DNA of 64,000 nucleotides. Origin: Oceanispirochaeta sp. (GTDB lineage Bacteria; Spirochaetota; Spirochaetia; DSM-2461). Positions 15,025-40,246 of this stretch are shown here, piece by piece; the stretch's first letter is position 1, and each line of letters opens with the position of its first letter. The notes under the pieces were generated by a model that was not told the origin of the DNA, did no database searches, and was given only the letters and a program-made list of their open reading frames with translations. The stretch lies in the NCBI GenBank assembly GCA_963666275.2, contig CAXXOA010000002.1, positions 1,088,001-1,152,000 on the forward strand, read 5' to 3'. Made by a program: the position numbers and the translations under genes.

Positions 15025-15052
15025 ATATTGAACTAACAGGAACAAGGAACAT

Positions 15053-16039: not shown

Positions 16040-16049
16040 TTAGAAAATT

Positions 16050-18061: not shown

Positions 18062-18074
18062 GGAGAGAGTGAAT

Positions 18075-20325: not shown

Positions 20326-20337
20326 AACAGGTGGTGT

Positions 20338-22647: not shown

Positions 22648-22651
22648 GAGT

Positions 22652-23320: not shown

Positions 23321-23339
23321 GAAAGGAACGCAATCAGTC

Positions 23340-23825
23340 ATGGAGATCCGTTTTACCCTCAACGGCCGGAGCGTCACTGCCGAGGTAGAAAAAAGACAAA
23401 CCCTTCTCTCCCTTATCAGGGATCACTTCCATCTGACCGGAACCAAATACGGCTGCGGAACAGGAGACTGCGGGGCCTGCAAGGTGCTGCTGGACGGGCA
23501 GGCTGTGACCTCCTGCAATCTGCCCTCCTACAGGGTGGACGGCCGGTCTGTGGTGACTATTGAAGGGATAAACGGGGAAGACGGCTCTCTCCATCCTGTT
23601 CCGCAGGCTTTTCTGGACGCCGGTGCGGTTCAGTGCGGCTTCTGCACACCCGGCATGGTGATTCAGTCCATCGACCTTCTGGGCAGGAATCCCGATCCCC
23701 ATGAAGAGGAGATCCGGGAGGCTCTGAAGCACAATATCTGCCGCTGTACGGGGTATGTAAAAATTGTTCAGGCCGTTCAGAATGCGGCAGAGCTTATGAA
23801 AGGAAAGGATGGGCTCCATGGCTGA
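23340..23825 (+). CDS. 2x[2Fe-2S] small subunit of a Mo-hydroxylase (CoxS/XdhC-type)
   Basis: GTKYGCGTGDCGACKV...SC, QCGFCTPG, NICRCTGY; start ATG 23340. Confidence 0.93.
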   Translation: MEIRFTLNGRSVTAEVEKRQTLLSLIRDHFHLTGTKYGCGTGDCGACKVLLDGQAVTSCNLPSYRVDGRSVVTIEGINGEDGSLHPVPQAFLDAGAVQCGFCTPGMVIQSIDLLGRNPDPHEEEIREALKHNICRCTGYVKIVQAVQNAAELMKGKDGLHG

Positions 23826-26574
23826 TAAGCAGATCTCTTTAAAAATAAATGGATCCGGGCATTCTGTCCTGGTTCGGCCCGGTCTGACTCTCATGAAATT
23901 CCTCCGGGAGGATCTGGATCTGACCGGAACCAAATGCGGCTGCGGCGCCGGAGACTGCGGAGCCTGCAAGGTCCTTGTCAACGGACAGGCTGTAACGACC
24001 TGCAATCTGCCTCTCTCCCGTCTGGACGGAGCGGATATCGTCACCGTGGAGGGCCTGGCCGAGTCCGCCCTCGATGGAGGAGCTCTGCATCCGGTACAGC
24101 AGGCATTTATCGATGCCGGTGCGGTTCAGTGCGGCTTCTGCACCCCCGGTATGGTCATCACCACTGTGGATCTTCTCTCCCGCCATTCCCGCCCCTCCGT
24201 GTGGGAAATCCGGAAGGCCTTTGAGAACAATCTCTGCCGCTGTACGGGATACGCTAAAATTATCGATGCGGTCAAAATCGCTTCGGGCCAGATGACCCCT
24301 CCTGAAAAAAGTGACGGAGTGGGAGGATTTTCTCCTGTGACCCGGGTTTCTTCCAAGGTAACTGGCCGTCTGAAGTATACAGCGGATATGAAATTCTCCG
24401 GAGCCCTGAAGGGAAAGATCCTCTATGCTCCGGCTCCTCACGGGATTGTAACGAAAATCGACACCGAAAAGGCCCGGGCTCTTCCGGGGGTTGTGGATGT
24501 GGTGACCTTTGAGGATATTCCCGACAGGACATTCAACAGCCATATTACGGTTCCCTATCAGGACGTCCGGAAGAACGACAGGATTTTCAACAGCCATTTC
24601 CGCTACAGAGGGGACAGGATCGCCGCGGTAGCCGCTGTAGATGAGGCCACCGCCCGGAAGGCCCTGAAGCTGATTGATGTGGAGTATGAGGCTCTCCCTT
24701 TTCTGAGAACGCCGGAAGAGTCCCTTCAAGAGGGGGCCCCTCCCATCCATGAAGAGGGCAATGCTCCGGCGGAAATCTCCGACTCCTCAGGAACTCTGCC
24801 CGACAGCCGGGAGGACTGGTTTGTCTATGAAGATACCTTCCGGACCGGCCGGGTTACCCATGCGGCCATGGAGCCCCATGCGGTCACAGCCCTCTACGAA
24901 GAGGAGGTACTTACAGTCTACAGCTCCTGTCAGAATGTTTTCTGTTATCAGGCTATGCTGGCCGAACTGTTTGAACTGCCCTTTAACAGGGTCCGGGTGA
25001 TCAAACCCCCTGTGGGAGGAGCTTTCGGCGGCAAGTCCGAGATGGTTCTGGAACCGGTAGCCGCTCTCCTGGCCCTGCGGACAGGCCGTCCCGTGGCCAT
25101 GGAAATGACAAGGAAAGAGGTGTTCAGTTCCACAAGGACCCGAACCCCTGTGAAGATAGAGCACAGGATCTGTGTGGGGGCTGACGGGCTTTTCCGGGAG
25201 CATGACTATCAGGCTGTTATGGACAGAGGCGCCTACTTCGGCAGCGGGTTCGATCTGGGCTATGCCTTTATGGACAAAGCCTACCGCCTGTACCGGGTTC
25301 CCCGTATCGCTACAGAAGTTAAACTGGCCTATACCAATAATCAGCCCCCCGGTGCCATGAGGGGCTATGGGAATCCCCAGCTCTCCTTTGCCAGAGAGGT
25401 TCTTATAGACAGAATCTGCCGGGACAGGGGTTGGGATCCCGTGGAATTCCGTCTGGCCAATCTGATTCAGCCGGGGGATAAAAACCCCTCGACAGGAGAC
25501 GATCTGGGGGCAGCCCATCCTGCGGAGTGTCTGAAAGCAGGGGCGGAAAAGTTCCGCTGGGACGAGAGGAAGAGGCTCTGTCATGAACACAACAGCATTC
25601 CCGGTCAGACTCTTCTCCGGGGGATCGGTGCTGTCTCGGGGGTCCACGGCGCGGGAATCTATCCGGGCTGTGTGGACTATTCTACCGCTTCGGTAAAACT
25701 GTTCCCCGACGGTTCGGCTGTGCTTACAATTTCGGCCCATGAGAACGGCCAGGGAAGCAGCATCCTTATGAAGAAAATCCTCTCCTCCTGTCTGGATATT
25801 CCGGAGGATAAAATCTCACTGGCCGAGACGGATACCCTGATGACGTTCTACGATAATGGAAGTTACGCCAGCAGGGAAACCTGGGTATGTGGACAGGCTG
25901 TTCTGAAAGCCGGAGAAACCATGAAGAGGCTCCTTCTGGAAGAGGGGGCCCGGATGTTCGGCTGTGCCGCAGCTGATGTGGAGTTCTGTGACGGCAGTGT
26001 CCGTTTTAAATACGCCGAAGGAAAATCGGCCTCTCTTACCGAGCTGGTCAGGCATGCGCAGACAAGCTATCCCTTCCGGGATATGGCTGTGATTGAGAGC
26101 GTTCCCTGTCCTTTTGATCCGGGAGCCTACTTTTCCAACTTTGCCGAAGTGGAAGTCAACAGGGAAACCGGTGAGGTCAGGGTTCTGGACTTTCTGGCTG
26201 TGCACAATTCGGGTACACCCATTAATCCTGTCATGCTGGAGGGTCAGGTGGAAGGAGGCCTTCACATGGGTCTGGGATTCGCCCTTTCCGAAGAGCTGGA
26301 TGTGGACCCCGAAACAGGGGATGTGAAGAACGGAAACTTCAGGAAATACGGATTTTTCCGGGCTTCCGAGATGCCTGAGACGGATGTGCTCTTTCTGGAT
26401 AACCCGGAAGAACCCGGTCCCTACGGGGCGAAGAGTATCGGAGAAGCCACAACCGGAGGGGTCGCTCCGGCGGTTATCAATGCCATCAGTCATGCCACGG
26501 GGGTGGATTTTTCCACCCTGCCTGTGCGGGCGGAGGATGTTCTGGCGGGGTTATCCGCTTCAAATAATAAGTAA
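23818..26574 (+). CDS. Mo-hydroxylase subunit 2 with fused N-terminal 2x[2Fe-2S] domain (aldehyde oxidoreductase-like architecture)
   Basis: GCGAGDCGAC, QCGFCTPG, NLCRCTGY, then MEPH, GGAFGGK, AMRGYG, GQVEGG, GAKSIGE; start at 23809 or 23818. Confidence 0.93.
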   Translation: MADKQISLKINGSGHSVLVRPGLTLMKFLREDLDLTGTKCGCGAGDCGACKVLVNGQAVTTCNLPLSRLDGADIVTVEGLAESALDGGALHPVQQAFIDAGAVQCGFCTPGMVITTVDLLSRHSRPSVWEIRKAFENNLCRCTGYAKIIDAVKIASGQMTPPEKSDGVGGFSPVTRVSSKVTGRLKYTADMKFSGALKGKILYAPAPHGIVTKIDTEKARALPGVVDVVTFEDIPDRTFNSHITVPYQDVRKNDRIFNSHFRYRGDRIAAVAAVDEATARKALKLIDVEYEALPFLRTPEESLQEGAPPIHEEGNAPAEISDSSGTLPDSREDWFVYEDTFRTGRVTHAAMEPHAVTALYEEEVLTVYSSCQNVFCYQAMLAELFELPFNRVRVIKPPVGGAFGGKSEMVLEPVAALLALRTGRPVAMEMTRKEVFSSTRTRTPVKIEHRICVGADGLFREHDYQAVMDRGAYFGSGFDLGYAFMDKAYRLYRVPRIATEVKLAYTNNQPPGAMRGYGNPQLSFAREVLIDRICRDRGWDPVEFRLANLIQPGDKNPSTGDDLGAAHPAECLKAGAEKFRWDERKRLCHEHNSIPGQTLLRGIGAVSGVHGAGIYPGCVDYSTASVKLFPDGSAVLTISAHENGQGSSILMKKILSSCLDIPEDKISLAETDTLMTFYDNGSYASRETWVCGQAVLKAGETMKRLLLEEGARMFGCAAADVEFCDGSVRFKYAEGKSASLTELVRHAQTSYPFRDMAVIESVPCPFDPGAYFSNFAEVEVNRETGEVRVLDFLAVHNSGTPINPVMLEGQVEGGLHMGLGFALSEELDVDPETGDVKNGNFRKYGFFRASEMPETDVLFLDNPEEPGPYGAKSIGEATTGGVAPAVINAISHATGVDFSTLPVRAEDVLAGLSASNNK

Positions 26575-26587
26575 GGTGATTAAATAA

Positions 26588-27196
26588 ATGAAAATACTCG
26601 TATTATTAGCCCATCCATCGGAAGGAAGTCTGAATTCCGCCATCGCCCGGAGGGCTGTCGCGTCTCTGGAGAGGATCGGACATGATGTTGTATTTCATGA
26701 TCTCTACAGGGAAGATTTCAGTCCCCTCATGACTGAGGAAGAGCTGGCTGAAAACTATACACCTTCCGGCCTGGTCGGCCGGCATTGTGATGAACTGAAA
26801 TCTGCTGACGGTATCGTGGTGGTGCATCCCAACTGGAGGCATCAGGCTCCGGCTGTTCTGAAGGGCTGGGTAGATCGGGTAATCCGTTCGGGAGTTGCCT
26901 TTGAATATGCCGGGGAGGACGGCGGGGAAGGCCGTCTTGTTCCTCTGTTAACGGGCAAATCGGTCACTGTATTCAATACAGCAGACTGCCCTGAAGAGGA
27001 GCTTACAGCGTTGGGTGATCCTTTGAAGCAGTTCTGGGGGCAGATTGTATTCGGGAACTGCGGGGTGGATCAGTTTGTAAAAAAAGATTTCTGCAGTGTT
27101 TTTCTCAGTACACTGGATCAGAGAGAAGCCTGGCTGGAAGAGGTGGAAACTCTATTGAAAGAGCAGTTTAAAGTAGAATCATCCATATTTATCTGA
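26588..27196 (+). CDS. flavodoxin-fold NAD(P)H oxidoreductase (MdaB/KefF/NQO-like)
   Basis: LAHP, DLY..DFSP, HPNW..PAVLKGWVDRV. Confidence 0.85.
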   Translation: MKILVLLAHPSEGSLNSAIARRAVASLERIGHDVVFHDLYREDFSPLMTEEELAENYTPSGLVGRHCDELKSADGIVVVHPNWRHQAPAVLKGWVDRVIRSGVAFEYAGEDGGEGRLVPLLTGKSVTVFNTADCPEEELTALGDPLKQFWGQIVFGNCGVDQFVKKDFCSVFLSTLDQREAWLEEVETLLKEQFKVESSIFI

Positions 27197-27245: not shown

Positions 27246-27265
27246 TAATGAATAGAGGTGTGTTG

Positions 27266-28600
27266 ATGATAAATGATCTGAGATCCTATATGAACGTACT
27301 CAGGGAGCAGGGAGAGCTGAATCTTCTGGAATCACCTGTTGATTTGAATAGAGAGCTGGGAAGCATACTGGCTTCTGTAGAGAAGAAAGGCATGCCGGCT
27401 GTCCACTTTACCAACCTGAAAGAACGGGAAGGAGAAGTGGTGGGAGGGCTCCTTTCCAGCCATAGGAAAATCGCCCTGGCTCTGGGATGCAAAACAAAAG
27501 AAATTTCCAACGTGCTTATGAAAGCGTATGAGAATCCCATCAAACCGGTGAAAGTGAAAACGGCGGATTTTCATAAGAATATCAAAACAGGGAAAGAGGC
27601 TTCCCTTATGGAACTGCCCATTCCCATCCATGCTCCCGAGGACGGCGGCCCCTTTATCACCGCCGGCGCCTGTATTTCAAGGGATCCCGAAACGGGCAGA
27701 CAGAATGTTTCCTTTCAGAGAATGCATATAAAGAGCGATAACCGTTCGGGGATCATGATCAACGAGTGGCGCCACCTCCGGGAGATGATGAAAAAAGCAT
27801 GGGCCAAGGGGGAAGGACTTCCCATTGCCATTGCGGTGGGAGTTGATCCGGCGGTTCTGATCGGGGCGGGGTTCCGTTATGACGGGGATGAGATGGAAAT
27901 TGCTTCGGCGATCCGTCAGACTCCCATCGAGGTCGTAAAGTGCCAGACCAGCGATATCCTGGTTCCGGCCCATGCGGAATATGTTATTGAAGGACAGATC
28001 CTTCCGGACCTTCTGGAAAAGGAAGGCCCCCTGGCTGAGTTTACCGGTCACTATGGAAAGCTCTGGGACAGCCCTGTGTTCGAACTGGAAGCCATCTGCC
28101 ACAGGGATAAGCCGATCTGGCAGACCATGAACGGCGGGTCCTTCGAACACATCAATCTGGGGAATGTCCTGCCCCGGGAACCTCTGCTGGAAAATTACAC
28201 CCGCTATGTCTCCAAAAATGTGGTGGATGTGCATATTCCTCCCTACGGGGGCGGATTCCTGGCACTGATTCAGATGAAGAAGACCAATCCGGGAGAACCG
28301 AAAAATGTCGCCATGGCGGCCATGACAAGCCATGTGAACATAAAAAATGTTATTGTTGTAGATGAAGATACGGATATCTACAACGCCTCCGAGGTCTGGT
28401 GGGCTGTAACAAACCGGGTGAATCCCCGGGAGGATGTTTTTGTGGTTCCCAATTCCCAGGGGCATGAACTGGATCCCTGCAGTGATCCCGTGGGAGTCCA
28501 GAACAAGACAGGTATAGATGCCACTTCCAAAGCGCATATGAGTGATCTGAAGAAAGTGGTTTATCCTGATTATGATCTGACTCAGCTCGCTTTTTCGTAA
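27266..28600 (+). CDS. UbiD-family prFMN-dependent (de)carboxylase 1
   Basis: LPIP..DGGPFIT, NVSFQRM, AEYVIEG, EGPLAEFTGHYG, IVVDEDTDI, GIDAT; start ATG 27266 after GAGGTG. Confidence 0.92.
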   Translation: MINDLRSYMNVLREQGELNLLESPVDLNRELGSILASVEKKGMPAVHFTNLKEREGEVVGGLLSSHRKIALALGCKTKEISNVLMKAYENPIKPVKVKTADFHKNIKTGKEASLMELPIPIHAPEDGGPFITAGACISRDPETGRQNVSFQRMHIKSDNRSGIMINEWRHLREMMKKAWAKGEGLPIAIAVGVDPAVLIGAGFRYDGDEMEIASAIRQTPIEVVKCQTSDILVPAHAEYVIEGQILPDLLEKEGPLAEFTGHYGKLWDSPVFELEAICHRDKPIWQTMNGGSFEHINLGNVLPREPLLENYTRYVSKNVVDVHIPPYGGGFLALIQMKKTNPGEPKNVAMAAMTSHVNIKNVIVVDEDTDIYNASEVWWAVTNRVNPREDVFVVPNSQGHELDPCSDPVGVQNKTGIDATSKAHMSDLKKVVYPDYDLTQLAFS

Positions 28601-28643
28601 TGCCGGGGATGTGATTTTTTATTGATAGGAGTGAAGAGATAAA

Positions 28644-30128
28644 ATGATGGAGATATATGATTCAGTAAAAGCCTTTCTGAGTGAACCGAAAGGGAATCTG
28701 ATCGACGGCGCTTTTGTTCCTGCTGTTTCCGGAGAGCGGGCCAATGCCAGAAACGCTTCGGACGGGACAACCCTCGGACAGACTGCCGCCTCGGGAAGTG
28801 CGGATGTGGATGCGGCTGTAAAAGCCGCGGCCGGAGCGTTTCCCTCCTGGTCGGCTTCGGCTCCAGGATACCGGGAAGGGGTTCTGCGGAAGTTCGGGGA
28901 GCTGATTCAGGCTCACAAAGAGGAACTGGCTCAGCTGGAGTCCCTGGAAACCGGGAAACCTGTGGATCATACCATGAAAATTGATGCTCCTGTCTCCTCA
29001 TTCAACATGCTCAATGCCTCGGGGATTCCCAGTCGGATCACCGGGGAAACCATACCGGTTTCCGCGCCGGGAATGTTTGTCTATTCTCTCCGGCAGCCTC
29101 TGGGTACCATCGGGATCATTCTGCCCTGGAACTATCCGCTGATCCACTTTTCCCAGAAAGCCGGACCGGCTCTGGCGGCGGGAAACTGTGTGATCATCAA
29201 GCCCGCCTCGGTGGCGTCCCTTTGTATTCTCAGACTGGGAGAACTGGCCTGTGAAGCGGGGCTTCCCCCGGGAGTTCTCAATATCCTGACCGGAAGCGGC
29301 AGTGTTATCGGCAGTGCCATTTCCTCCCATCCGGGAATCCGGAAGGTTCAGATCACCGGTTCCACTGCTGTGGGAAAAGGGGTGATCAAAGCGGGGGCGG
29401 AAAATCTGAAGCGGGTGACCCTGGAACTGGGTAGCAAAGCGCCGAATATTATTTTCGATGATGCAAACCTGGAGAAAGCCATTGAGGGCGCCTTTGACGC
29501 GGCCTTCGGCAACACAGGACAGAGCTGTGTGGCGGGAAGCCGCCTTTATGTACAGGACAGGATCTACGATGCAGTTCTGGCGGGACTTCTGAAAAAAATC
29601 GAGACAGTGAAAACAGGACCCGCCATGGATGAAGAGACCCGGTTGGGGCCGATCGTGGATGAAAATCAGTTCAATACCATTATGAAATACATCGAAACCG
29701 GTAAATCCGAGGGAACTCTGCAAACCGGTGGTTTCCGTATGACAGGGGGGAATCTTCCGGAGGGAGGATTCTACATCGCCCCTACTGTTTTTACTGATGT
29801 GGCTGATGATGCGGTGATCTCCCGGGAGGAGATATTCGGTCCGGTAGTCTGTGTCTATCCCTTTAAAACAGAAGAGGAAGTGATTGCTCGTGCCAATGAT
29901 ACCCGGTATGGCCTGGCCGCCGCAGTCTGGACCGGGAATCTGGGCCGCGCAAGCAGAGTCTCGGCAGCTCTGGAGTCGGGAGTGGTCTGGGTGAATACCT
30001 ACGACAGATTCTCCTCCAATGTGCCTTTTGGCGGTTTCAAAGAGAGCGGTTACGGCAGAGACAATGGAACAGCGGCGATTGAGGCTGTGACAGAACTGAA
30101 GTCCGTCTGGATCAATACAGCAGAATAG
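28644..30128 (+). CDS. NAD(P)-dependent aldehyde dehydrogenase
   Basis: PWNYP, TGSTAVG, LELGSKAP, GQSCVAG (catalytic Cys), EEIFGPV, PFGGFKESG. Confidence 0.95.
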   Translation: MMEIYDSVKAFLSEPKGNLIDGAFVPAVSGERANARNASDGTTLGQTAASGSADVDAAVKAAAGAFPSWSASAPGYREGVLRKFGELIQAHKEELAQLESLETGKPVDHTMKIDAPVSSFNMLNASGIPSRITGETIPVSAPGMFVYSLRQPLGTIGIILPWNYPLIHFSQKAGPALAAGNCVIIKPASVASLCILRLGELACEAGLPPGVLNILTGSGSVIGSAISSHPGIRKVQITGSTAVGKGVIKAGAENLKRVTLELGSKAPNIIFDDANLEKAIEGAFDAAFGNTGQSCVAGSRLYVQDRIYDAVLAGLLKKIETVKTGPAMDEETRLGPIVDENQFNTIMKYIETGKSEGTLQTGGFRMTGGNLPEGGFYIAPTVFTDVADDAVISREEIFGPVVCVYPFKTEEEVIARANDTRYGLAAAVWTGNLGRASRVSAALESGVVWVNTYDRFSSNVPFGGFKESGYGRDNGTAAIEAVTELKSVWINTAE

Positions 30129-30137
30129 GGAGTACTT

Positions 30138-31268
30138 ATGGATATTACAAGCTTTTATCTACCAGTAAAAATACTGGAAGGTCCCGGGTCTTCCCGGCAG
30201 ATCGCCGATCATCTGGGCAGGGGGAAAACCCTTCTTGTCACAGATAAGGGCCTTGTTTCGGCAGGTCTTGCGGGCACCATGGCCTCGACTATGCAGTCCT
30301 CGGGGCTGGAAACTGAGATCTATGACGATGTGCTTCCCGATCCGGACGAAGCCATGGTCATGAAACTGGTGGAAGTTCTGAGAAAAGAGTCGTTCCGGCA
30401 GGTTGTGGCTCTGGGCGGAGGCAGTGTCATCGACACGGCCAAAGCCGCCTGCTGTCTGGCTGTGAATGAAGGCCCTATGGAGGCGTATCAGTGGGATAAC
30501 AGGATCTTTGAAAATCCCCCCCTGCCTCTGGCTGCTGTTCCCACCACATCCGGGACGGGCAGTGAAGTTTCCGGTGTGGCTGTTATCGGCAGCCGGAATA
30601 CCAAAAAGGGGATCAAGCAGGACGCCATCTTTCCGAAACTGGCAGTGATAGATCCCGAGCTGATGACAGGGCTTCCTCCTTTTCTGACTGCCATAACAGG
30701 AATGGATGCGCTGACTCACGGGATAGAAGCCTATACGGGCAAGAACCGGAATCCCCTGATCCTGAGCCTGGCGGAATCTGCCATTAAACTGACTGTCAGC
30801 GCCCTGTCCGAAGCGGTTCATAACGGATCGGATATCCAGGCCCGCTGGGATATGGCCAAAGCTGCCATGATGGCGGGAATCGCCATGGATCTGGGAGGAC
30901 TCGGTATTGTTCACTCTATTTCCGCTCCCTTCTGTACGGCCCTGCATGTCTCCCATGGCCTGGGAAACACATTCCTTCTGCCCTATGCTCTGGAATTCAA
31001 TATTGCCGGAAACGAAGAACTTTATGATGATCTGGCCCGACTTCTGGGAGGAAGCTCTCACAGGGACTGTATCCCTGCCATTCTGAACTGGCAGAAAGAG
31101 CTGGGACTGGAAGAGGCTCTGGGAAAAGTCCGGGATCAGCTGGCCTCTGAGGGAGACCTTGAGATGATCGGAAAAATCGGTTCGGGAATGTTTCTTATGA
31201 AGAATAATGTAAAACCCGCTTCTCCCGGGGAGTGTACGGCTCTTCTGAAAAAAGCCGCAGGCCTTTAA
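30138..31268 (+). CDS. iron-containing alcohol dehydrogenase
   Basis: GGGSVIDTAK, PTTSGTGSE, DALTHGIE, H...SHG metal ligands. Confidence 0.92.
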   Translation: MDITSFYLPVKILEGPGSSRQIADHLGRGKTLLVTDKGLVSAGLAGTMASTMQSSGLETEIYDDVLPDPDEAMVMKLVEVLRKESFRQVVALGGGSVIDTAKAACCLAVNEGPMEAYQWDNRIFENPPLPLAAVPTTSGTGSEVSGVAVIGSRNTKKGIKQDAIFPKLAVIDPELMTGLPPFLTAITGMDALTHGIEAYTGKNRNPLILSLAESAIKLTVSALSEAVHNGSDIQARWDMAKAAMMAGIAMDLGGLGIVHSISAPFCTALHVSHGLGNTFLLPYALEFNIAGNEELYDDLARLLGGSSHRDCIPAILNWQKELGLEEALGKVRDQLASEGDLEMIGKIGSGMFLMKNNVKPASPGECTALLKKAAGL

Positions 31269-31864
31269 GGCTCCTCAATCAGCTCTTCCCCTGCCCAGGA
31301 CTTCAGCCTGTCAGAGCTGATCCCCAGGGATTTCAGTATCCTTGCGGAGATCTGCTGGAGCAGATCGTCGATGGTTTCCGGGTTGTGATAAAACGAAGGG
31401 ATCGGCGGGAGTATAACAGCTCCCGCATCGGTCAGATTCAGCATGTTTGTCAGATGTATTCTATTGAAAGGGGCTTCCCGGGGAACAAGGACCAGAGACC
31501 TTTTCTCTTTGAGTGAAACGTCCGCAGCTCTCTCTATGAGATTCCGGGATATTCCGGCGGAAATCCCACCCAGAGTTCCCATGGAGCAGGGGGCAATGAT
31601 CATGCCGTCATAGAAGGAGGATCCGCTGGCAAGAACGGAGGCCATATTATTCCACTGTTCCCGGAGGATCTTCCCCCTCTGGCCTTTGAGCCAGTTTTCC
31701 CAGGATATTCCGGTTTCGTGTATAGCCACCTGATCAGCCCAGTTGGATATGATCAGACTGATTTCCGCCTCCCGGTCCTGCAGGTCTGTTATAAGCTGCC
31801 GGGCAATAGCCGTTCCCGAAGCGCCGGTTATGCCCAGAATAATTTTTTTCGGTTTCTGTATCAT
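31265..31864 (-). CDS. ubiX: flavin prenyltransferase
   Basis: GITGASG, ASGS, APCSMGTL, RAADVSLKEKRSLVLVPREAP, PSFYHNP. Confidence 0.93.
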   Translation of the reverse strand: MIQKPKKIILGITGASGTAIARQLITDLQDREAEISLIISNWADQVAIHETGISWENWLKGQRGKILREQWNNMASVLASGSSFYDGMIIAPCSMGTLGGISAGISRNLIERAADVSLKEKRSLVLVPREAPFNRIHLTNMLNLTDAGAVILPPIPSFYHNPETIDDLLQQISARILKSLGISSDRLKSWAGEELIEEP

Positions 31865-31960
31865 AGCTTGAATTGTAATGATAATCCGGGGAAACTGAAA
31901 GAGGGATGCCCTGTTTGTAACAGGTCCCTGTTTGTGGTAGTTTAGTTCTCAGGAGAGTAT

Positions 31961-32698
31961 ATGGCGTCCAGAATACAGGTCGGAGCATCACGTACAGAGC
32001 TCGTTAAAGCAGAGATTCTCAATATTATAAAGGAACAGAATCCCCGGTTGAAAAAGCTTCCTTCCGAAGGGGATCTGTCCCGCATTCTGGGAGTCAGCAT
32101 CTCCACCATACGGGAAGCTCTCAGACTCCTCAATAAAGAGGGGTTTATAACCAAAAAACACGGATCAGGGAACTATATCCACTGGAGCGCCCTGGATTGT
32201 CCCATGCGGATAGATCTTATCTTCGATTTCCGGCAGCTCATGGCGGACAGCGGAAACCCAGTCTCGGAAATTACAGAGCGAATGAGGGAAGTGAAGTCGG
32301 GATATCTGGAAAAAGAGACCCTCAGCCTGCCTGAGGGGAGTGACATCCTTGAATATACAAGAACCTATGTTTCCTTTGCGGGAACAGGAATCCTCTCAGT
32401 GAGCAGTGTTCCCCGGGATCTTGTAAAAAGAGACGGACTGGACAGAGATTCTTTTGCCACTCTGGGAGATTTTATCTGGCAGAGCTGCGGCAGGGAGGTG
32501 GCCCACTCTCTGTGCACATTTATTCCTGTCATCTCTGATGAAGAGCTGAACAGTGTTTTCGGCTTTCATGAAAACAAGGCACTGATCCAGTGGCAGGAGA
32601 TCTTCTATGATCAGGAGGATGATCCTGTCCTTACCACAAAAGTGTACTTCAATCCGGATCTGATCATTATGAGTCTTTTACGCAAACAGGATCACTGA
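31961..32698 (+). CDS. GntR-family (HutC/UTRA-type) transcriptional regulator 2
   Basis: LPSEGDLSRILGVSISTIREAL...HGSG wHTH; C-terminus resembles the GntR at 19582 (FNP motif). Confidence 0.87.
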   Translation: MASRIQVGASRTELVKAEILNIIKEQNPRLKKLPSEGDLSRILGVSISTIREALRLLNKEGFITKKHGSGNYIHWSALDCPMRIDLIFDFRQLMADSGNPVSEITERMREVKSGYLEKETLSLPEGSDILEYTRTYVSFAGTGILSVSSVPRDLVKRDGLDRDSFATLGDFIWQSCGREVAHSLCTFIPVISDEELNSVFGFHENKALIQWQEIFYDQEDDPVLTTKVYFNPDLIIMSLLRKQDH

Positions 32699-32724
32699 AG
32701 CCGGACCCCGGAGGAAGAGATCCC

Positions 32725-33570
32725 TTAAACATCATTCAGTCTGTTCAGCAGGGTTTCCTTTGTTTCATCAAGGCTGCTGATCGTTTCAGGAGAGCCGCAT
32801 ACGGCAAGGACTGTGAACAGGACATCCGCCAGGTACATAAGAGACAGGCGGGACTCTGTCGTCCCCGTATAGGCATAGATATCCAGATAGCTCCCGATCA
32901 GAGTGTAATCTGATAACAGGGCCAGAGGGGATTCCTCATTGTTGGTCATACAGACTATCGTCGCCTGATTCTTTTTTGCCTTTTCGGCCATCTCGATCAT
33001 ATCCCTGTCGTATCCCGAAAATGAGAGGAACCAGGCTATGTCATTCCTTTTCAGATTGTTGGCTGATATCTGCTGGAAAACAAGATCTGTCTGGAAAATC
33101 GATTCTATCCCCAGCCGGGAAAATTTATTCAGCAGGTCAAGTGCGACCACAGAGGATCCTCCGACACTGAAAAGCTGTATCTTCTTTTTGCTGAGGATTA
33201 AATTCACAAGCTTGTCCAGCTGAAGGGGATCCAGCTGGTTCAGGGTTTTTTCAAGGGCACTGCACTCTTTTGAAAAAATTTTGGCAGCAATCCCCATGGT
33301 TGAGTCATCAGCGCTGACTCCCTCCTGCAGCAGGGAGTAGCTGGCGGCGACCTGATGGGCCACCGCAAAGGAGAAAGCTCTGAAATTCTCATATCCCAGT
33401 TTTCTGCAGAACCGGGAGATGGTGGATTTACTGGCGCCGGTTATTTTCGACATGTTTACGATGGAAATATTTTCAATGTCCTCCAGGTTGGCGAGAACAT
33501 AATCTTTCAGACTTTTTTCAGTTTTTGAAAAAGTATTCTTTTTATCCTCCAGTTTCGCTAGTAAATCCAT
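32725..33570 (-). CDS. RpiR/MurR-family transcriptional regulator
   Basis: SKSTISRFCRKLGY HTH plus SIS domain (GGSSVVA, SFSG, SPLA). Confidence 0.92.
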   Translation of the reverse strand: MDLLAKLEDKKNTFSKTEKSLKDYVLANLEDIENISIVNMSKITGASKSTISRFCRKLGYENFRAFSFAVAHQVAASYSLLQEGVSADDSTMGIAAKIFSKECSALEKTLNQLDPLQLDKLVNLILSKKKIQLFSVGGSSVVALDLLNKFSRLGIESIFQTDLVFQQISANNLKRNDIAWFLSFSGYDRDMIEMAEKAKKNQATIVCMTNNEESPLALLSDYTLIGSYLDIYAYTGTTESRLSLMYLADVLFTVLAVCGSPETISSLDETKETLLNRLNDV

Positions 33571-33591: not shown

Positions 33592-34212
33592 TTATTGTTT
33601 TGATTCGAAAATCCTCTTCCCTTCATTGTAGATCAGCGTGGTTTCGGCAAGTTTTTTCACCAGGGAGCTCACGGTTTCAAATCCGATTGTATCATCTTCC
33701 TGCTGCAGATCCTTGATATCTCTGGACCATACTTTTCCGCCGATATACCCTCTTTCCTCATTGCTCACAACGTTGAATCCTCTTGTCATAAGCAGATGAA
33801 GAATGGTGTTCAGAGCTGATTCCTGGCCACCGTTTCTTGTGCCGCCCACAGTAAAGCCCGCTCCCAGTTTATTCCGCAGGACTCCCGGTTTCATTACACC
33901 AACAGGCCTGAGCCGGGAAAAAAACGCCATAAGCTGAGGCGTGATGGTGTGCACATAAACAGGGCTTCCTATCAGAACCGCATCAGCGGTAATAAAAGAA
34001 TCGATAAGGCTCTGCATATCGTCCTTGAAAATACACCATGATTTGTTTTTTCTACAAGATCCGCATCCGTTGCAGGGGGCTATTTTTTTACCGCGCAATG
34101 AAATTATCTCAGTTTCAATGTCTTCGCCTGCTACTTCAGAAAGGGCGTTTTCAAGTATGTTAAGTGTGGCTCCCTTTCTGGGACTTCCTGATAATCCTAA
34201 AATTCTGATCAT
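33592..34212 (-). CDS. iron-sulfur flavoprotein (Isf)-like protein 2
   Basis: GSPRKG, CNGCGSCRKNKSWC, GSPVY, GGTRNGGQE. Confidence 0.88.
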   Translation of the reverse strand: MIRILGLSGSPRKGATLNILENALSEVAGEDIETEIISLRGKKIAPCNGCGSCRKNKSWCIFKDDMQSLIDSFITADAVLIGSPVYVHTITPQLMAFFSRLRPVGVMKPGVLRNKLGAGFTVGGTRNGGQESALNTILHLLMTRGFNVVSNEERGYIGGKVWSRDIKDLQQEDDTIGFETVSSLVKKLAETTLIYNEGKRIFESKQ

Positions 34213-34264: not shown

Positions 34265-35602
34265 TCACTGTTTAAGGAAAGCATCCAGATCCACAGCGGG
34301 ATAGGTGACTCTTCTGTAATCATCTTTTATCTTAAGGTCAATGGTCGCATCGATGGCGAATTTTGTCTGCATTCCCTCTTCGTCGGTGGTGGGGTCATTT
34401 TCCATTCCCTGGGCATAGGGAACCGTCACAATGTCCTTATTCGCATCCACCCGGGTGGACATGGCCCATAGGATGTCAGCGGGAAGATAGATGTTCACAT
34501 CAGGGTCCACAACCACAGCAATTTTGATATTCACATGGGTCATCAGAGCCGCCATGGCCACATTCTTGGGTTCTCCCGAATTGGTTTTGCTCAGAGCCAC
34601 AATCGCCATAAATCCCCCTGTGTAGGGTGTGAGGTGAACATCGGTCACATTGGGAGACACATGGGAAACCATCCTTTTCAGCATGGGTTCACGGGACAGC
34701 ACGTTTCCTACATTTATATGCTCATTGGAGGCGGGAATAATCGTCTGATAGATTGGATTATTCCGATAACAGATGGAAGTCACCTCTATCACAGGCATAT
34801 ACTGATGCTCTCCATAGTGTCCTGTAAACTCGGCAAGAGGGCCTTCGTCTTCCCACTCTTTTATCTTGACAAATCCTTCCACCAGAATCTCCGTATCGGC
34901 GGGAACATTGATATCCACAGCGTTGCCTCGGGCCACTTTCAGGGGTTCCCCGTTCAGGGCTCCCGCCAGGTAGGCTTCATCCTCTTCAATGCGGAATCCA
35001 GTAGAGATTTCCACTGCCGGATCCACGCCGATGGCAATGGCTATGGGCATATCTTCCCCTTTTGCCTCATACTTTTTAAAATTCTGATAGATATGCCTCC
35101 ACTCGTTCATCATCAGTCCCAGTTTCCGGGGGCCCTTGACCTGCAGTCGGTTGAAGGAAAAGTTCTGCCTTCCCGTTTCGGGATCTTTGGAGACTATAAT
35201 CCCTCCGGTTATATAGGGGCCTGCATCGCCGGAATTGTGATGGGGAATGGGAAGCTGTTCCAGGAGATTGATATCCTCTCCGCTTATGATGTTCTCCAGG
35301 AACGGGGGATTTTCCACAACTTCCGGAGCCATCAGTCTGCCCAGTGCCTCATCTACTTTCTGATTTATCTCCTGTTCTGTACAGTCCAGAGCCAGGGCAA
35401 TGCGCTTCATATGACCCAGTACTCCGCCGACGATGGGAATCCCCGAAGGATTGTCCGTATTGGTAAACAGTCCGGCTGGTCTTCCTTCTTTTTCCATGGC
35501 ATTTTCAATTGCCGCGAATTCAAAATCCAGTTTCACTTTTTTATCAATTTCAATCAATTGACCGTTCTGTTTCAGTTTTTCTAAAAATTGTCTCAGTTCC
35601 AT
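34265..35602 (-). CDS. UbiD-family prFMN-dependent (de)carboxylase 2
   Basis: LPIP..DAGPYIT, NFSFNRL, EGPLAEFTGHYG, VVVDPDVNI, AIDAT. Confidence 0.92.
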   Translation of the reverse strand: MELRQFLEKLKQNGQLIEIDKKVKLDFEFAAIENAMEKEGRPAGLFTNTDNPSGIPIVGGVLGHMKRIALALDCTEQEINQKVDEALGRLMAPEVVENPPFLENIISGEDINLLEQLPIPHHNSGDAGPYITGGIIVSKDPETGRQNFSFNRLQVKGPRKLGLMMNEWRHIYQNFKKYEAKGEDMPIAIAIGVDPAVEISTGFRIEEDEAYLAGALNGEPLKVARGNAVDINVPADTEILVEGFVKIKEWEDEGPLAEFTGHYGEHQYMPVIEVTSICYRNNPIYQTIIPASNEHINVGNVLSREPMLKRMVSHVSPNVTDVHLTPYTGGFMAIVALSKTNSGEPKNVAMAALMTHVNIKIAVVVDPDVNIYLPADILWAMSTRVDANKDIVTVPYAQGMENDPTTDEEGMQTKFAIDATIDLKIKDDYRRVTYPAVDLDAFLKQ

Positions 35603-35715: not shown

Positions 35716-36522
35716 CTATTTAAGGATTCCCTCTTTGACAAAGGTATGCCTGATATCGGTGGCATGCTTCTGGAACAGGGGTGTATCCTGGATGCTTAGA
35801 TCTCTCGGCCGTTTCAGGTCGTCCAGTTCTTTGGTATAGAGCACTCTTCCCGGCCGTTTTGACATTACCAGGACTCTGTCCGCAAGGAACACGGCCTCGT
35901 AGATGTTATGGGTTATGAAAAGCACCGTATTGCAGTTCTTCTGCCATATCTTTACAAGGTCGGCAGTCATCTGTTCCCGGGTCAGCGAGTCAAGAGCACC
36001 GAAGGGCTCGTCCATCAGGAGCAGGGGCGGGCGGGTAATCAGGGCCCGGCAGATGGATACACGCTGCCGCATTCCTCCTGAAAGTTCATAGGGGTATCTG
36101 TTTTCAAACCCCGCCAGCCCGGCCATTTCAAGGAGTTCCATGGCCCTGTCCCTGTATTTTTCAACGGGTCCCAGCTTTTTGATCTCTATAGGGAGCAGGA
36201 CATTCTCTATCACAGAGCGCCAGTCCATCAGGAAGTCCTGCTGAAAAACAAATCCAATATCTGTGTAGGGTTTCTCCACCAGCTGATCGGCTATTCTGAT
36301 CTCTCCGGTGGAACTCTTTAAAAGTCCGCTGATAAGCATCAGCAGCGTACTCTTTCCACAGCCGCTGGGACCAACTATGGACAGGAACTCTCCGGCCTTT
36401 ATATCCAGGGAAAATTCCTCCAGCGCCTGAAGGGGGCCATCGGACGTTTCATACACTTTGGTAACACCTGATATTTTTATGGGAAGGCCCTTTGCTGAGC
36501 CGTTGTTTTCAAATTCACTCAC
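35716..36522 (-). CDS. NitT/TauT-family ABC transporter ATP-binding protein
   Basis: [33 protein letters not shown] start at 36522 inferred from an AGAGGAGA RBS. Confidence 0.92.
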
Positions 36523-36565
36523 AGTTCTCTCCTCTCTGCTTTTATATTCTTTGCCATTGCCTCTG

Positions 36566-37402
36566 TTACTCTTTGCGGTTGGGGTCACCTTTGATACACA
36601 CTTTTTCAATCAGGTTCACCACATTAAAAAGGACAATTCCCATGAGGGAAAGGATTATAAGGATCGCAAATACCATCGGGGTATCAAGATTGCCTCCGGC
36701 TACAACCTGGTAGTATCCCAGACCTTTGTTGGCGGCAACGTATTCTCCCACAACAGCTCCGACCACCGAAAGGGTTATACCGACTTTCAGTCCCGCAAAG
36801 ATATTGGGAAGAGCCTGGGGAACCCTGAATTTCCAGAACTGCTGCATTCCAGAAGCACCCAGGGAACGGGCCAGGTAGAGCATCTCCCTGCTTATGGATT
36901 TCAGACCGATGACGGAGTTGACAATAATAGGGAAAAAACACACAAGAAAGGCAACCATCAGGGTCGGGATAATACTGAATCCGAACCAGGCTACAAGGAT
37001 AGGAGCCAGGGCCACTTTGGGAATCGCCTGAGCGGAAACCAGCAGAGCGTAGGCAGTCTTTTCAAACAGGGGAACATAGACAATCAATATGGCCAGAGGA
37101 AAACCGACGCCCATGGCAATCAGGAATCCGAGAAGCACTTCGTAAAGGGTCACCCAGCTGTGTCCGGCCAGAACCCGCCAGTTTTCGGCAACAGTTTTCA
37201 ATATTACCGAAGGGGCGGGAATCAGATAGATCGGTGCATCCAGAATCCTGACAAGAAACTCCCACAGAACTATCAGGAAAACAACTGAGAAGATAGTATA
37301 CATATTATTCGTGAAAAAAGAGAGACACACTCTCTCCTTCTTTTTTGTGCCCGCTTTACTTCTCTTTTCCGCGGGACCACTATTTCCCAATATTTCTGCC
37401 AT
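36566..37402 (-). CDS. NitT/TauT-family ABC transporter permease
   Basis: IPAPS, QAIPKVALAPIL, FFPI, ARSLGAS, ALPNIFAGLK, GLG. Confidence 0.9.
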   Translation of the reverse strand: MAEILGNSGPAEKRSKAGTKKKERVCLSFFTNNMYTIFSVVFLIVLWEFLVRILDAPIYLIPAPSVILKTVAENWRVLAGHSWVTLYEVLLGFLIAMGVGFPLAILIVYVPLFEKTAYALLVSAQAIPKVALAPILVAWFGFSIIPTLMVAFLVCFFPIIVNSVIGLKSISREMLYLARSLGASGMQQFWKFRVPQALPNIFAGLKVGITLSVVGAVVGEYVAANKGLGYYQVVAGGNLDTPMVFAILIILSLMGIVLFNVVNLIEKVCIKGDPNRKE

Positions 37403-37495
37403 AAAGAACATCACCTCTAATATTTAATTAAGTTATGGAGACCCGGCGGTTTTCCACCGGGACTCCTGTATAGTTTTCAGAAAACTCAGATTGTA

Positions 37496-38542
37496 TTACT
37501 CATCAATAAATGCATTTGTATAGTATTCGCCAACGGGTTCACGGGAATCCAGAGCTCCGTTGTCATACATGATAGCGATAGTACGTTCGAGACTGTCTTC
37601 TGATATCCATCCGTAGGGTTTCCCTTCTGTCTCTTCGGTGCTGAACAGCTCGATGGTTCTGGCTACCTGATTCCTTGTAATTTCCTTATTGAGTTTATCA
37701 GGGAAGAGTGAGTACATAAGGTCAGCCGCTTCCTCGGGATGAGCCACGGTATATTCTGCTCCTCTCCGTACAGCTCTGTTGACAGCGGCGACAATTTCGG
37801 GATTCTCTTCAATGTATTTATCCGAAGCAACCAGTCCGTGAGCCATCATGTTGAAACCGAAGTCTCCAATGAAGAAATAATTGAAATCTTTTCCGGTTTT
37901 GGCTTCCAGAGTCGCCAGGTCATTGGTTGAGTAACCGGCCATCATCTCAACATTACCGTTCAGGAAGGCGGCCGTTTTGGCGCCCCAGTCGGCTATGATC
38001 AGATTGACACTGTCGGTATCCACTCCGTTATAGCTCAGAAAGGCATCCAGAATCATCTGCATGGATCCACCAGCTGTATCCACAATGGTTTTACCAGCCA
38101 TATCTGCAGGGGTCTCCAGTTTTACTTCCGGCAGGGCCATAACAACCTGGGGCAGCTTCTGCAAATAGCATGATGTCATTTTGATCTTCATCCCTTTGGA
38201 ACGGGCAACAATAGCGTCATCGGCGGCAAGATAGGAAAACTGGTCGTCTCCTGATACAAGCAGCTGAGCCGGAGTGGCTTTTTCCGAACCTTCAAGGATG
38301 GTTATGTCGATACCTTCTTCGGCAAAATATCCCAGCTCCTGGGCTACAAAAAGATGGGCGTATTCCCCTTTGATGAGCCAGCTGAGCCTTAGATTAACGG
38401 GGGTGAGTCCGTTTTCTCCTGCTGTACTGTCATCCGATGATCCATTGGCAAAACAGAATGTTGAAGCACCCGTCGCCATCAGTAAAACCATTCCAATCTT
38501 CCAGAATCCCTTAAGAACTCTGTTCCCGTTTAAAATACTCAT
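37496..38542 (-). CDS. NMT1/THI5-like (NitT/TauT) ABC substrate-binding protein
   Basis: Signal peptide; LRLSW, FVAQELGYFAEEGID, HGLVAS..I.ENPE, HPEEAA, YYTNAFI. Confidence 0.85.
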   Translation of the reverse strand: MSILNGNRVLKGFWKIGMVLLMATGASTFCFANGSSDDSTAGENGLTPVNLRLSWLIKGEYAHLFVAQELGYFAEEGIDITILEGSEKATPAQLLVSGDDQFSYLAADDAIVARSKGMKIKMTSCYLQKLPQVVMALPEVKLETPADMAGKTIVDTAGGSMQMILDAFLSYNGVDTDSVNLIIADWGAKTAAFLNGNVEMMAGYSTNDLATLEAKTGKDFNYFFIGDFGFNMMAHGLVASDKYIEENPEIVAAVNRAVRRGAEYTVAHPEEAADLMYSLFPDKLNKEITRNQVARTIELFSTEETEGKPYGWISEDSLERTIAIMYDNGALDSREPVGEYYTNAFIDE

Positions 38543-39029: not shown

Positions 39030-39236
39030 ATGCCGGTTGTTAATGTTATGTTATGGGAAGGCAGAACTGTCGAACAGAAGAGAGAATTGGCTGCTTCAAT
39101 CACAGAGAGTGTGGTTGAAATCGGCAAATGTCCCAGAGAGAGTGTGGTTGTAACCTTCAGTGATTTTCAGAAATCAGACTGGGCTGAAGGAGGTTACCTG
39201 GCAATAGATAAGGTCAGATATCCGAAAGAAGATTAA
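39030..39236 (+). CDS. 4-oxalocrotonate tautomerase-family protein
   Basis: Met-Pro start (catalytic Pro1), EGRTVEQKREL, W..GG; 68 aa; AAGGAG RBS. Confidence 0.9.
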   Translation: MPVVNVMLWEGRTVEQKRELAASITESVVEIGKCPRESVVVTFSDFQKSDWAEGGYLAIDKVRYPKED

Positions 39237-39296: not shown

Positions 39297-39704
39297 ATGA
39301 GTACACAGCATACAATTCTTGTTCAGGGGGCCGTCTTTTATGCCTACCACGGGGCAACCCCGGAACAGATTAAACAGGGACAGCGCTTTATTATCGATGC
39401 CGAAGTCAGTTCGGACATGAGCAAGGCCTGTCAGGATGATTCGGTGGAAGGGATTGTGAATTACCCTGAAATTTTCAAAATCATTGAAGATATCACGACC
39501 AATGAAAGATTCAATCTCATGCAGAAACTGGCATTGAGGATTATTGAAAAAATTAAAAGTGATTTCCCCGATGTCAGCAGAATCAGTCTTTCCGCCAGAA
39601 AAGCCATGTGTCCTTTCTACCGTGACTGCAAAACAGTACCGGGCGGAGGCGGTTTTATTACAGATAACGGCGGATGCGGCGTGACTCTGGTTCGGAATTT
39701 CTAA
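39297..39704 (+). CDS. folB: dihydroneopterin aldolase (FolB)-like T-fold protein 1, divergent active site
   Basis: FYAYHG...GQRFIID, VNY, FNLMQKLA, ARK; start ATG 39297 after AGGAGG. Confidence 0.82.
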   Translation: MSTQHTILVQGAVFYAYHGATPEQIKQGQRFIIDAEVSSDMSKACQDDSVEGIVNYPEIFKIIEDITTNERFNLMQKLALRIIEKIKSDFPDVSRISLSARKAMCPFYRDCKTVPGGGGFITDNGGCGVTLVRNF

Positions 39705-39728
39705 TCAAATATAGAGGGGAAATAGAAT

Positions 39729-40097
39729 ATGAAAAATTATGATATACTGAAATCAAACGGGATGATGTTCTGGGGAAACCATGGTCTGACCGAAGAGCAG
39801 AATGTAATGGGAACCAAATTTGTCGTAGACATTGAAGTGACCCTGGATATGTCAAATCAGTTTGCGGAAGATCAGCTGAGCAGCGGCCTTACCTATACGG
39901 ATCTTTATCTGATTACACAGCAGGTTGTGACTCAGGAGCATTATAAAACCATACAGAGAGTGGCTCAGAGAATTACCGATGAGATTAAAAACACCTCAAA
40001 AACACCCATCGAAGGTGTATCTGTCACTGTAAAAGAGCAGTTTCCCGCTATTCCGGGGTCCAATGTTGAATACATAGGTTTTACTCTGAACAGTTAA
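39729..40097 (+). CDS. folB: FolB-like T-fold protein 2, divergent active site
   Basis: FWGNHG...GTKFVVD, LTY, KTIQRVAQRI, PAIPG...GF. Confidence 0.78.
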   Translation: MKNYDILKSNGMMFWGNHGLTEEQNVMGTKFVVDIEVTLDMSNQFAEDQLSSGLTYTDLYLITQQVVTQEHYKTIQRVAQRITDEIKNTSKTPIEGVSVTVKEQFPAIPGSNVEYIGFTLNS

Positions 40098-40108: not shown

Positions 40109-40150
40109 GGGGACTGCCCGGAACCTCGGGGGAGGTCCCCTCTTTTCCCT
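40109..40150 (+). terminator. probable terminator after the folB-like pair
   Basis: GGGGAC...GTCCCC imperfect hairpin followed by TCTTTT. Confidence 0.55.
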
Positions 40151-40246
40151 TTCGGAAATATAAACAATTGTAGAAATGTGGCATACTGAAGCGTCACACA
40201 GATTCACATCATCTGAACTGACCATCTGAACCGACACGGAGAAAGA

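Follow-up and report, generated by a model that had tools for sequence, protein, structure and literature searches.

A tandem FolB-like gene pair with glutamine at both conserved glutamate positions and a predicted hetero-oligomeric site

The active site of dihydroneopterin aldolase (DHNA, FolB) is built from two subunits, a point on which two reports agree (PMC4176595, PMC9937910). In the E. coli enzyme, one subunit contributes Glu21, Glu73, and Lys98, and its neighbor contributes Tyr53′ together with residues 47′ and 50′–55′; N3-H and the 2-amino group of the pterin are held by Glu73 and the side-chain 1′-hydroxyl by Glu21, and the Tyr protonates the intermediate (PMC4176595, contacts in its Table 1). 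The backbone carbonyl of Leu51′ also contacts the 2-amino group, at 96% occupancy in the molecular dynamics table of that paper. In urate oxidase, Gln228 binds 8-azaxanthine, an oxo-purine (PMC7792999). A preliminary description of the locus studied here had cited both the anchoring of the 2-amino/N3 edge by the Glu of the LLE motif (E73/74) and the use of Gln by urate oxidase, and these sources bear it out on both.

Pteridine catabolism has been described in Cupriavidus LA-1, where an aerobic route that starts from side-chain-free hydroxypterins uses a pterin deaminase, a Mo dehydrogenase, an amidohydrolase isomerase, and UbiD/UbiX, the isomerase being an alpha2/beta2 pair with one inactive subunit; neither aldolase nor FolB occurs in the main text of the paper (PMC12391406). 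Lumazine-6-carboxylate has been discussed as a candidate folate breakdown product (PMC9513972), and the terms aldolase, FolB, and anaerob- are absent from a 2026 review of pterin deaminases. The riboflavin-induced fin cluster of Lachnospiraceae includes a class I aldolase and RibF, with DHNA and UbiD unmentioned in the available text (PMC12934955).

Here we analyze two adjacent FolB-like genes in a 64,000-nucleotide stretch of the Oceanispirochaeta sp. genome (the window, to which all plain coordinates refer). We conclude that the two genes are a conserved, apparently undescribed variant of a known fold, for which a switch of specificity and a hetero-oligomeric site are both predicted. Our search of the open literature, with subscription journals largely uncovered, returned no description of FolB proteins with Gln at position 74 (1DHN numbering) as a clade, or of the split two-gene form.

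Two FolB-fold genes and their active-site residues

Subunit A is encoded on the forward strand at 39297..39704 (Met plus 134 codons, with AGGAGG just 5′), and subunit B on the same strand at 39729..40097, 24 bases after A. A terminator-like hairpin with a T-rich tail follows B (40128..40152, forward strand). The MFS gene beyond the hairpin is without counterpart in related loci and probably lies outside the A/B unit. No Rfam match, riboswitches included, was found within 10000-45000, and promoter-like sites occurred only at chance level.

Both proteins match the Pfam FolB family PF02152 above its cut-off (A, E 1e-23; B, E 3e-19). The FolX epimerase model PRK11245, with a cut-off of 152 bits, gave 34 bits for A and no match for B. 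AlphaFold models of A (pLDDT 75) and B (pLDDT 84) show the four-strand FolB topology, and the best structural matches of the A model are DHNAs (1SQL, Z 15.0, rmsd 2.9 over 120 residues; 1DHN, Z 14.9, rmsd 3.0 over 120 residues), with uricases behind them at Z 10.8-12.9. In the ESM Atlas, the only matches were generic FolB clusters.

Aligned without gaps to S. aureus DHNA (1DHN) by HMMER, A and B both have Gln at E22 and E74, encoded by CAG codons at 39366 and 39522 in A and at 39798 and 39954 in B. The preliminary description had read both conserved glutamates as glutamines in both copies and had named this alignment as the check on that reading, with Glu at these positions as the outcome that would speak against it; Gln was found at all four. 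Numbered by protein, A carries Q24 (E22), Y56 (Y54), Q76 (E74), and K102 (K100). B carries Q24, Y56 within an invariant GLTYTD stretch, and Q76, with E103 at the catalytic Lys position. The Lys of A is thus kept, as had been described, but the "shifted" Lys of B is not: in the B model the inward register of the third strand, V97-V99-V101, runs on to E103 while K102 points the opposite way, and a P-x-I-P-G anchor downstream also sets E103 at the K100 position. That register rules out a Lys that has merely moved. K102 of B falls at position 99, which is usually basic in canonical outgroup FolBs (R in 136, K in 3, and E in 2 of 141). The insertion noted earlier in A is real and family-wide, but it sits in the beta3-beta4 loop, before the last strand, rather than at the C-terminus. 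It carries an invariant Cys, C105, two residues past a Lys-Ala-Met turn, and a near-invariant Tyr, Y108; the model has low confidence in this loop.

The substitutions are neither chance nor peculiar to the window. Our first alignment comprised 166 FolB rows from fetched loci and protein matches, 143 of them non-family and 23 family (two being duplicates with a different start). All 143 non-family FolBs, a set skewed to Bacteroidota and Ignavibacteria, keep E22 and E74, and 141 have exactly E/Y/E/K at positions 22, 54, 74, and 100; all 23 family rows have Q22. In a second set, E/Y/E/K was found in 160 of 194 domains and Q74 in 26. Counting distinct sequences, many of which are close relatives rather than independent events, Q22 is present in 21/21 A-types and 9/9 B-types and Q74 in 29 of the 30 combined, the sole reversion to Glu74 in the family being a B-type. 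A sequencing error or pseudogene was ruled out, the four Gln being shared by homologs at 50-80% identity. A misalignment with the catalytic Glu one residue earlier was ruled out as well: position 21 of A-types is E, D, A, P, or Q, and position 22 is always Q.

The databases name A- and B-type proteins dihydroneopterin aldolase, and A scores above the TIGR00525 folB cut-off (82 vs 72 bits), as would suit ordinary if divergent aldolases or epimerases that tolerate Gln. We regard this as highly improbable: B falls below the same cut-off (66 bits), every outgroup FolB in the first alignment retains both Glu, and the folate genes are distributed in a way that argues against it. The host has a FolB-family gene with E/Y/E/K of its own, in a folM-folB-folK-folE operon on another contig, with folP elsewhere; the search for a canonical folB proposed in the preliminary description therefore has a positive answer. 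Another HPPK (folK) gene of this genome, at G000:C1:1952018-1952401, lies apart from the fol operon. In the four other genomes that carry the pair, all metagenome-assembled genomes (MAGs) of unstated completeness and one a single 4.3-Mb chromosome, folE, folK, and folP were not found by a search whose controls were positive in 11-13 of 14 genomes, and none of the 16 FolB matches in these carriers is E/Y/E/K. Because the host has a separate intact folB operon and folE, folK, and folP were not found in the other carriers, A and B probably do not serve folate synthesis, in agreement with the earlier suggestion. The pair departs from DHNA on four points of sequence or context: Glu74, Glu22, Lys and Tyr in one polypeptide, and co-occurrence with folE/folK/folP. 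If this is right, the database label is a misnomer that can falsely imply folate synthesis.

Complementary residue loss and a predicted hetero-oligomer

The two subunit types have lost different catalytic residues. A-types keep Q22, Q74, K100, and C105 in 21/21, with the Tyr position occupied by Y in 3, C in 16, and H in 2; the three that keep Tyr are the spirochaete ones. The statement that Tyr is retained in both copies thus holds for the window but not across the A family. B-types keep Q22 and the Tyr in 9/9 and Q74 in 8/9, with Q (6) or E (3) at the K100 position. Lys100 and Tyr54 occur in one polypeptide in 3/21 A-types, the window's own included, and in 0/9 B-types. Since the Tyr is donated by the neighboring subunit in DHNA, the split of Lys and Tyr means that, in most family members, only an A|B interface would restore a full site. 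The preliminary description had raised the idea of a hetero-oligomer in general terms, and this complementary loss adds a specific argument to it.

Conservation at contact positions follows the same division. In A the modal residue frequency is 0.94 at same-subunit contact positions and 0.59 at neighbor-subunit ones, against a background of 0.73; in B the corresponding values are 0.83 and 1.00, against 0.76. Gene order is A then B in 6/6 pairs from 5 genomes, and three fused two-domain relatives mirror the asymmetry, with Tyr kept in domain 1 and lost in domain 2. From these sequence patterns, A and B are predicted to form an obligate hetero-oligomer, probably an alternating ring with half of its sites active. 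As the first step of the mechanism we propose, and with good confidence, A would give Q24, Q76, and K102 (and C105/Y108) to the site, and B would give Y56 and a stacking loop across the interface. If true, this would be a clear case of a homo-oligomer dividing its interface active site between two genes.

Several observations count against parts of this prediction. The window's own A retains Tyr, which speaks against obligate pairing. In one other carrier, G062, a second A stands alone 5 kb from the pair; together with the excess of A-types (21) over B-types (9) found, this suggests that some A may work without B. The conservation of Q22 (9/9) and Q74 (8/9) in B-types is above expectation for a dead B site.

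Loss of E22 from both subunits also invites the reading that the pair is a non-catalytic binder or channel, holding an unstable reduced pteridine for the tautomerase, flavoprotein, or UbiD encoded nearby. Removal of E22 reportedly cuts DHNA turnover about ten-thousand-fold, and one further catalytic residue is missing per subunit in most family members. We nonetheless find such a carrier very unlikely, as the Lys, Cys105, and Tyr108 of A and the Tyr of B vary little or not at all, and between them they restore one complete Lys/Tyr site.

The surrounding island and its other carriers

Immediately upstream of the A/B pair lies a gene for a 4-oxalocrotonate-tautomerase-family protein with an N-terminal Pro (39030..39236, forward strand), the only one found in the genome. 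It adjoins the pair in 4/5 genomes, one of which duplicates tautomerase-A-B as a three-gene unit. This protein and four orthologs keep the N-terminal Pro and the first Arg and have a hydrophobic residue at the position of Arg39 of 4-oxalocrotonate tautomerase. Divergent from tautomerase-A-B is an NMT1/THI5-type ABC transporter operon (ATPase, permease, and binding protein; 35716..38542, reverse strand), and the AT-rich intergenic region between the two, 38543-39029, is without Rfam match.

The remaining genes of the island extend to 12497. On the reverse strand are an FMN-reductase-family flavoprotein with a CxxCxxC..C (Fe-S type) motif (33592..34212) and UbiD-family decarboxylase 2 (34265..35602), whose closest PDB entry is 6H6V (E 8e-83), which we take to be HmfF. 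A UbiX flavin prenyltransferase (reverse), a GntR regulator (forward), and an RpiR regulator (reverse) occupy 31265..33570, next to UbiD-family decarboxylase 1, an aldehyde dehydrogenase, and an iron alcohol dehydrogenase (27248..31268, forward). A further forward-strand set (19582..27196) encodes a GntR regulator, two xanthine-dehydrogenase-family Mo subunits, a 2Fe-2S protein, a second Fe-S flavoprotein, and an NAD(P)H oxidoreductase. Within 20338-27196, the two Mo subunits and 2Fe-2S modules come with no FAD subunit among ORFs of at least 150 aa, and the flanking Fe-S flavoprotein and NAD(P)H oxidoreductase may accept electrons from the Mo enzyme. A BMP-family (purine/nucleoside-type) ABC transporter with two binding proteins (14023..19580, forward) and a cytosine-deaminase-like amidohydrolase (12497..13717, reverse) complete the island, the latter with a 45% ortholog at the same island end in a second spirochaete genome. 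Neighbors of this kind point to the anaerobic catabolism of heterocycles.

Four other genomes were found to carry the pair. One is a Spirochaetia MAG (G061), in which the tautomerase-A-B unit occurs twice, in tandem. The other three all belong to Bacillota: one MAG each from Oscillospiraceae and Eubacteriaceae (G062 and G063 between them), and G064, listed as Bacillota. An Fe-S flavoprotein ortholog (53-70% identity) lies near the pair in 4/4 of these carriers and a tautomerase (66-71%) in 3/4, the fourth contig being 3.7 kb long. All four also have a BMP- or NMT1-type ABC transporter and an iron alcohol dehydrogenase close to the pair, the Bacillota alcohol dehydrogenase being only 26-27% identical to the window's. 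UbiD1 orthologs (56-84%) occur in 3/4 other carriers, UbiD not being found in G063, and the island deaminase was not found in G062 or G063. Nearly the whole island, deaminase through pair, is kept in G061, where an aldehyde:ferredoxin oxidoreductase and a FolB with an otherwise intact site and Gln74 directly precede UbiD1-ALDH-ADH, the place of the second Mo subunit in the window.

Other gene groupings in these genomes are recorded here as observations. Two Bacillota loci have a glycerol kinase after the A/B-flavoprotein-tautomerase genes (L012:14938-16503 and L014:11778-13541), with a GlpA-like oxidoreductase also in L012; no glycerol kinase is near the pair in the window's genome. In G062, the UbiD1 ortholog forms a cluster (L255:2-4229) with an Fe-S flavoprotein, a protein carrying a RibD_C (reductase) domain, and an amidohydrolase; the last shares 41% identity with an amidohydrolase close to the pair of G061. 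Deaminase homologs in G064 cluster with BMP transporters, an MtmB-family methyltransferase, and a probable corrinoid protein (L251:8644-17286 and L253:8282-16412), the L251 cluster also with a Mo enzyme, which suggests demethylation of N-methylated heterocycles.

The family is rare, known with context from 5 genomes, all MAGs except possibly the host, and this narrows its reach. Vertical inheritance in the host lineage was rejected, as 60 relatives, 10 congeners included, gave no match above 34% identity. The tautomerase-A-B genes have 42% GC vs 48% for the genome and, with the absence of the pair from these relatives, this fits lateral acquisition. No further pair was found in 300 genomes of the G062 family. 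Among 398 other genomes of the G064 class, a profile of the intact-site Gln74 proteins matched 3 sequences, all canonical folB in fol operons. A metagenome scan gave 80 loci, none of the Gln type, and a PF02152 scan of 401 genomes of the phylum, with inspection confined to genomes that were not multi-copy, added only canonical copies.

The combination of a deaminase, Mo dehydrogenases, and UbiD/UbiX in one island raises the question of whether A/B is a non-homologous stand-in for the 6,7-dihydroxylumazine isomerase, with Cys105 and Lys102 opening and re-closing the ring to give xanthine-8-carboxylate, then decarboxylated by UbiD. Rhizobial isomerase-like subunits are unmatched in the genome, the known isomerase is likewise an alpha2/beta2 pair with one inactive subunit, and Q22 could donate to the 6-oxo group. 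This stand-in is quite unlikely, however. The island UbiDs are only 27-28% identical to a putative xanthine-8-carboxylate decarboxylase, the three Bacillota loci have no Mo dehydrogenase beside the pair, and the Cys-carrying loop is modeled at low confidence. To our knowledge there is no ring-contraction isomerase chemistry in the FolB fold, which also counts against it.

Ligand, the wider Gln74 clade, and comparison with known systems

Our preferred reading, advanced tentatively and from sequence and gene context, at something short of even chances, is that the A/B ring acts on the C6 side chain, cutting or remodeling it, in a deaminated dihydropteridine of the 2,4-dioxo (lumazine) type during anaerobic breakdown. 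In the second proposed step, which we consider reasonably probable, Q76 would accept a hydrogen bond from N3-H and donate one to the 2-oxo group, replacing a Glu that accepts from the 2-amino group. The third step is a more cautious proposal, perhaps not quite an even bet: the substrate would be a pteridine that is imported, deaminated, and shortened by A/B with the aid of the tautomerase. Q22 would suit a 1′-carbonyl over a 1′-hydroxyl; a hydroxymethyl or formyl product would be oxidized to a ring carboxylate by the alcohol and aldehyde dehydrogenases or the Mo enzymes; and a prFMN-dependent UbiD would take off that carboxylate, as for hydroxymethylfurfural via HmfF. The loss of E22, the invariant Cys105, and the tight linkage to the tautomerase together suggest a 1′-oxo side chain in place of the canonical triol, a suggestion that is speculative.

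The preliminary description had taken the two Glu-to-Gln changes as one switch to a 2-oxo ligand, and here the two positions part ways. The change at E74 does touch the ring edge, but E22 contacts the side-chain 1′-hydroxyl rather than the ring, so its loss bears on chemistry rather than on 2-oxo recognition. The lumazine ligand it proposed is not established: the main-chain carbonyl that also binds the 2-amino group cannot be mutated away, and a Leu51′-type carbonyl that would face a 2-oxo group counts against a lumazine. Nor does the island deaminase give the fit that was claimed for it. It shares just 30% identity with its counterpart in a rhizobial cluster of lumazine type and 32% with two enzymes of unrelated context, and was not found in 2/4 other carriers; these identities mean that the deaminase is not diagnostic. 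The island UbiDs, at 34-38% identity to enzymes of HmfF clusters and 27-28% to the putative xanthine-8-carboxylate decarboxylase of Sinorhizobium, likewise do not name the substrate.

The pair might instead bind another oxo-heterocycle that the island degrades, such as a purine of the xanthine or urate type, a pyrimidine of the uracil type, or a flavin/ribityl-lumazine. The BMP binding protein most resembles purine-type binders (3S99, 6PI5) and the NMT1 protein a pyrimidine binder (3IX1), and the Mo subunits are xanthine-dehydrogenase-like. A carbonyl-NH-carbonyl edge is nearly symmetric, so the Gln site could conceivably hold a flipped ring, and the glycerol kinase that L012 and L014 have after the pair would be in keeping with a C3 unit being released. 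Such a ligand is on balance unlikely, given that A and B are FolB by sequence and fold, with DHNAs ahead of uricases among the structural matches, and that the Lys and Tyr that act on the C6 side chain are selectively retained. A flavin has further points against it: the weakest BMP match is the Treponema protein 4IIL (E 2e-10), presumably the riboflavin binder RfuA, and the Lachnospiraceae riboflavin cluster uses other genes, at least in the available text of its report (PMC12934955), a difference in gene set that disfavors riboflavin. The annotated ORFs of the island include neither RibF nor a class I aldolase.

Gln74 extends beyond the A/B family. Among further FolB matches of the other carriers were three single-domain E22/Y54/Q74/K100 proteins and one two-domain fusion, and a profile search of 1.84 billion representatives added six intact-site Gln74 proteins, two fusions whose domain 2 is without Tyr, and one Q/V/Q/K form. 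In a maximum-likelihood tree of 88 rows and 126 columns, with trait columns kept and 45 randomly drawn search matches plus 4 others as outgroup, one branch parted 39 Gln74-group rows from 49 Glu74 rows (UFBoot 98 / SH-aLRT 87, the bootstrap not having settled). A and B are each monophyletic, with B nested among intact-site forms. The split makes Gln74 the hallmark of a clade, within which Q22 and the division of Lys and Tyr are a derived state.

The single-domain intact-site proteins lie at L170:1477-1860, L171:1483-1857, and L174:1474-1851 and include P0057, P0059, P0065, P0070, P0071, and P0079. As only the ring-anchoring Glu is altered in them, they offer the cleanest test of a lumazine-specific aldolase. 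Such paralogs are present alongside the pair in the G061 and G064 genomes, which means that the pair may not perform a plain retro-aldol cut. Two-domain Gln74 fusions with no Tyr in domain 2 are L179:1474-2199, P0050, P0051, and P0054; L179 is preceded by an aldehyde:ferredoxin oxidoreductase and followed by a DUF6506 gene and a BMP binding protein. In G064, genes like Mch (methenyl-H4MPT cyclohydrolase, PF02289; L190:16025-17736 and L191:12450-13418) lie within a few kb of two intact-site Gln74 FolBs, one of which belongs to an operon of pyruvate/acetoin-dehydrogenase-like E1/E2 genes that also has a BMP transporter. Tandem FolB-FolB fusions whose C-terminal tail is Cys-rich and which mostly keep both Glu (P0053, P0055, P0056, P0058, P0062, P0068, P0136, and P0150) form a separate group, unrelated to the Gln74 clade.

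A broader proposal, possible but distinctly doubtful, is that the Gln74 FolB clade supplies the missing side-chain removal in anaerobic pterin catabolism, with intact-site members as lumazine-specific aldolases and A/B as an obligate hetero-oligomer that applies newly evolved Cys/Lys chemistry to a deaminated pteridine and supplies a prFMN-dependent anaerobic route not yet described. If true, these would be the first candidate enzymes for pterin side-chain removal and anaerobic pteridine breakdown, and the clade would hold a natural single-residue specificity switch, Glu to Gln and amino to oxo, in a well-studied fold.

Set beside the described systems, the pair is closest to DHNA FolB (PF02152, TIGR00525; 1DHN, E. 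coli 2O90), with which it shares the sequence family, the T-fold, and the interface site, with Lys in A and Tyr in B. It differs in having Gln for E22 and E74, Lys and Tyr spread over two genes, and a Cys/Gly-rich loop insertion in A, and in belonging to a catabolic island, including in genomes in which no folE/folK/folP was found. Urate oxidase shares the T-fold, the interface site, and a Gln on an oxo-purine (PMC7792999), but it is a two-domain oxidase with 5-11% structural-alignment identity, different chemistry, and an Arg176 with no identified counterpart here. Cluster I of LA-1 (PMC12391406), in the available text, resembles the island in its clustered deaminase, xanthine-oxidoreductase-family Mo enzyme, UbiD/UbiX, transporter, and regulator, and in a two-subunit enzyme with one subunit catalytically incomplete; the deaminase, Mo dehydrogenase, UbiD, and UbiX family types are all present within 12497-35602 of the window and in G061. 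A Sinorhizobium cluster of LA-1 layout, which stood in for LA-1 sequences in identity comparisons, matches the island in its deaminase, ABC transporter, Mo enzyme, and UbiD/UbiX types. In this cluster the transporter genes come after that for the deaminase, and the permeases and ATPase show 37-45% identity to those of the window. Its deaminase and UbiD find their best genome matches in the island genes, at 28-34% identity, but neither of its isomerase-like subunits matches the host genome (tblastn, E<1e-5), in which the sole Amidohydro_2 gene is about 0.5 Mb away. The HmfF pathway follows the logic proposed here, taking an alcohol through the aldehyde to the acid and then decarboxylating it, with ADH, ALDH, and UbiD/UbiX; hmf-like clusters differ in UbiD identity (34-38%), in having CoA ligase and enoyl-CoA hydratase genes, and in having no FolB-like gene, deaminase, or BMP transporter within the stretches compared.
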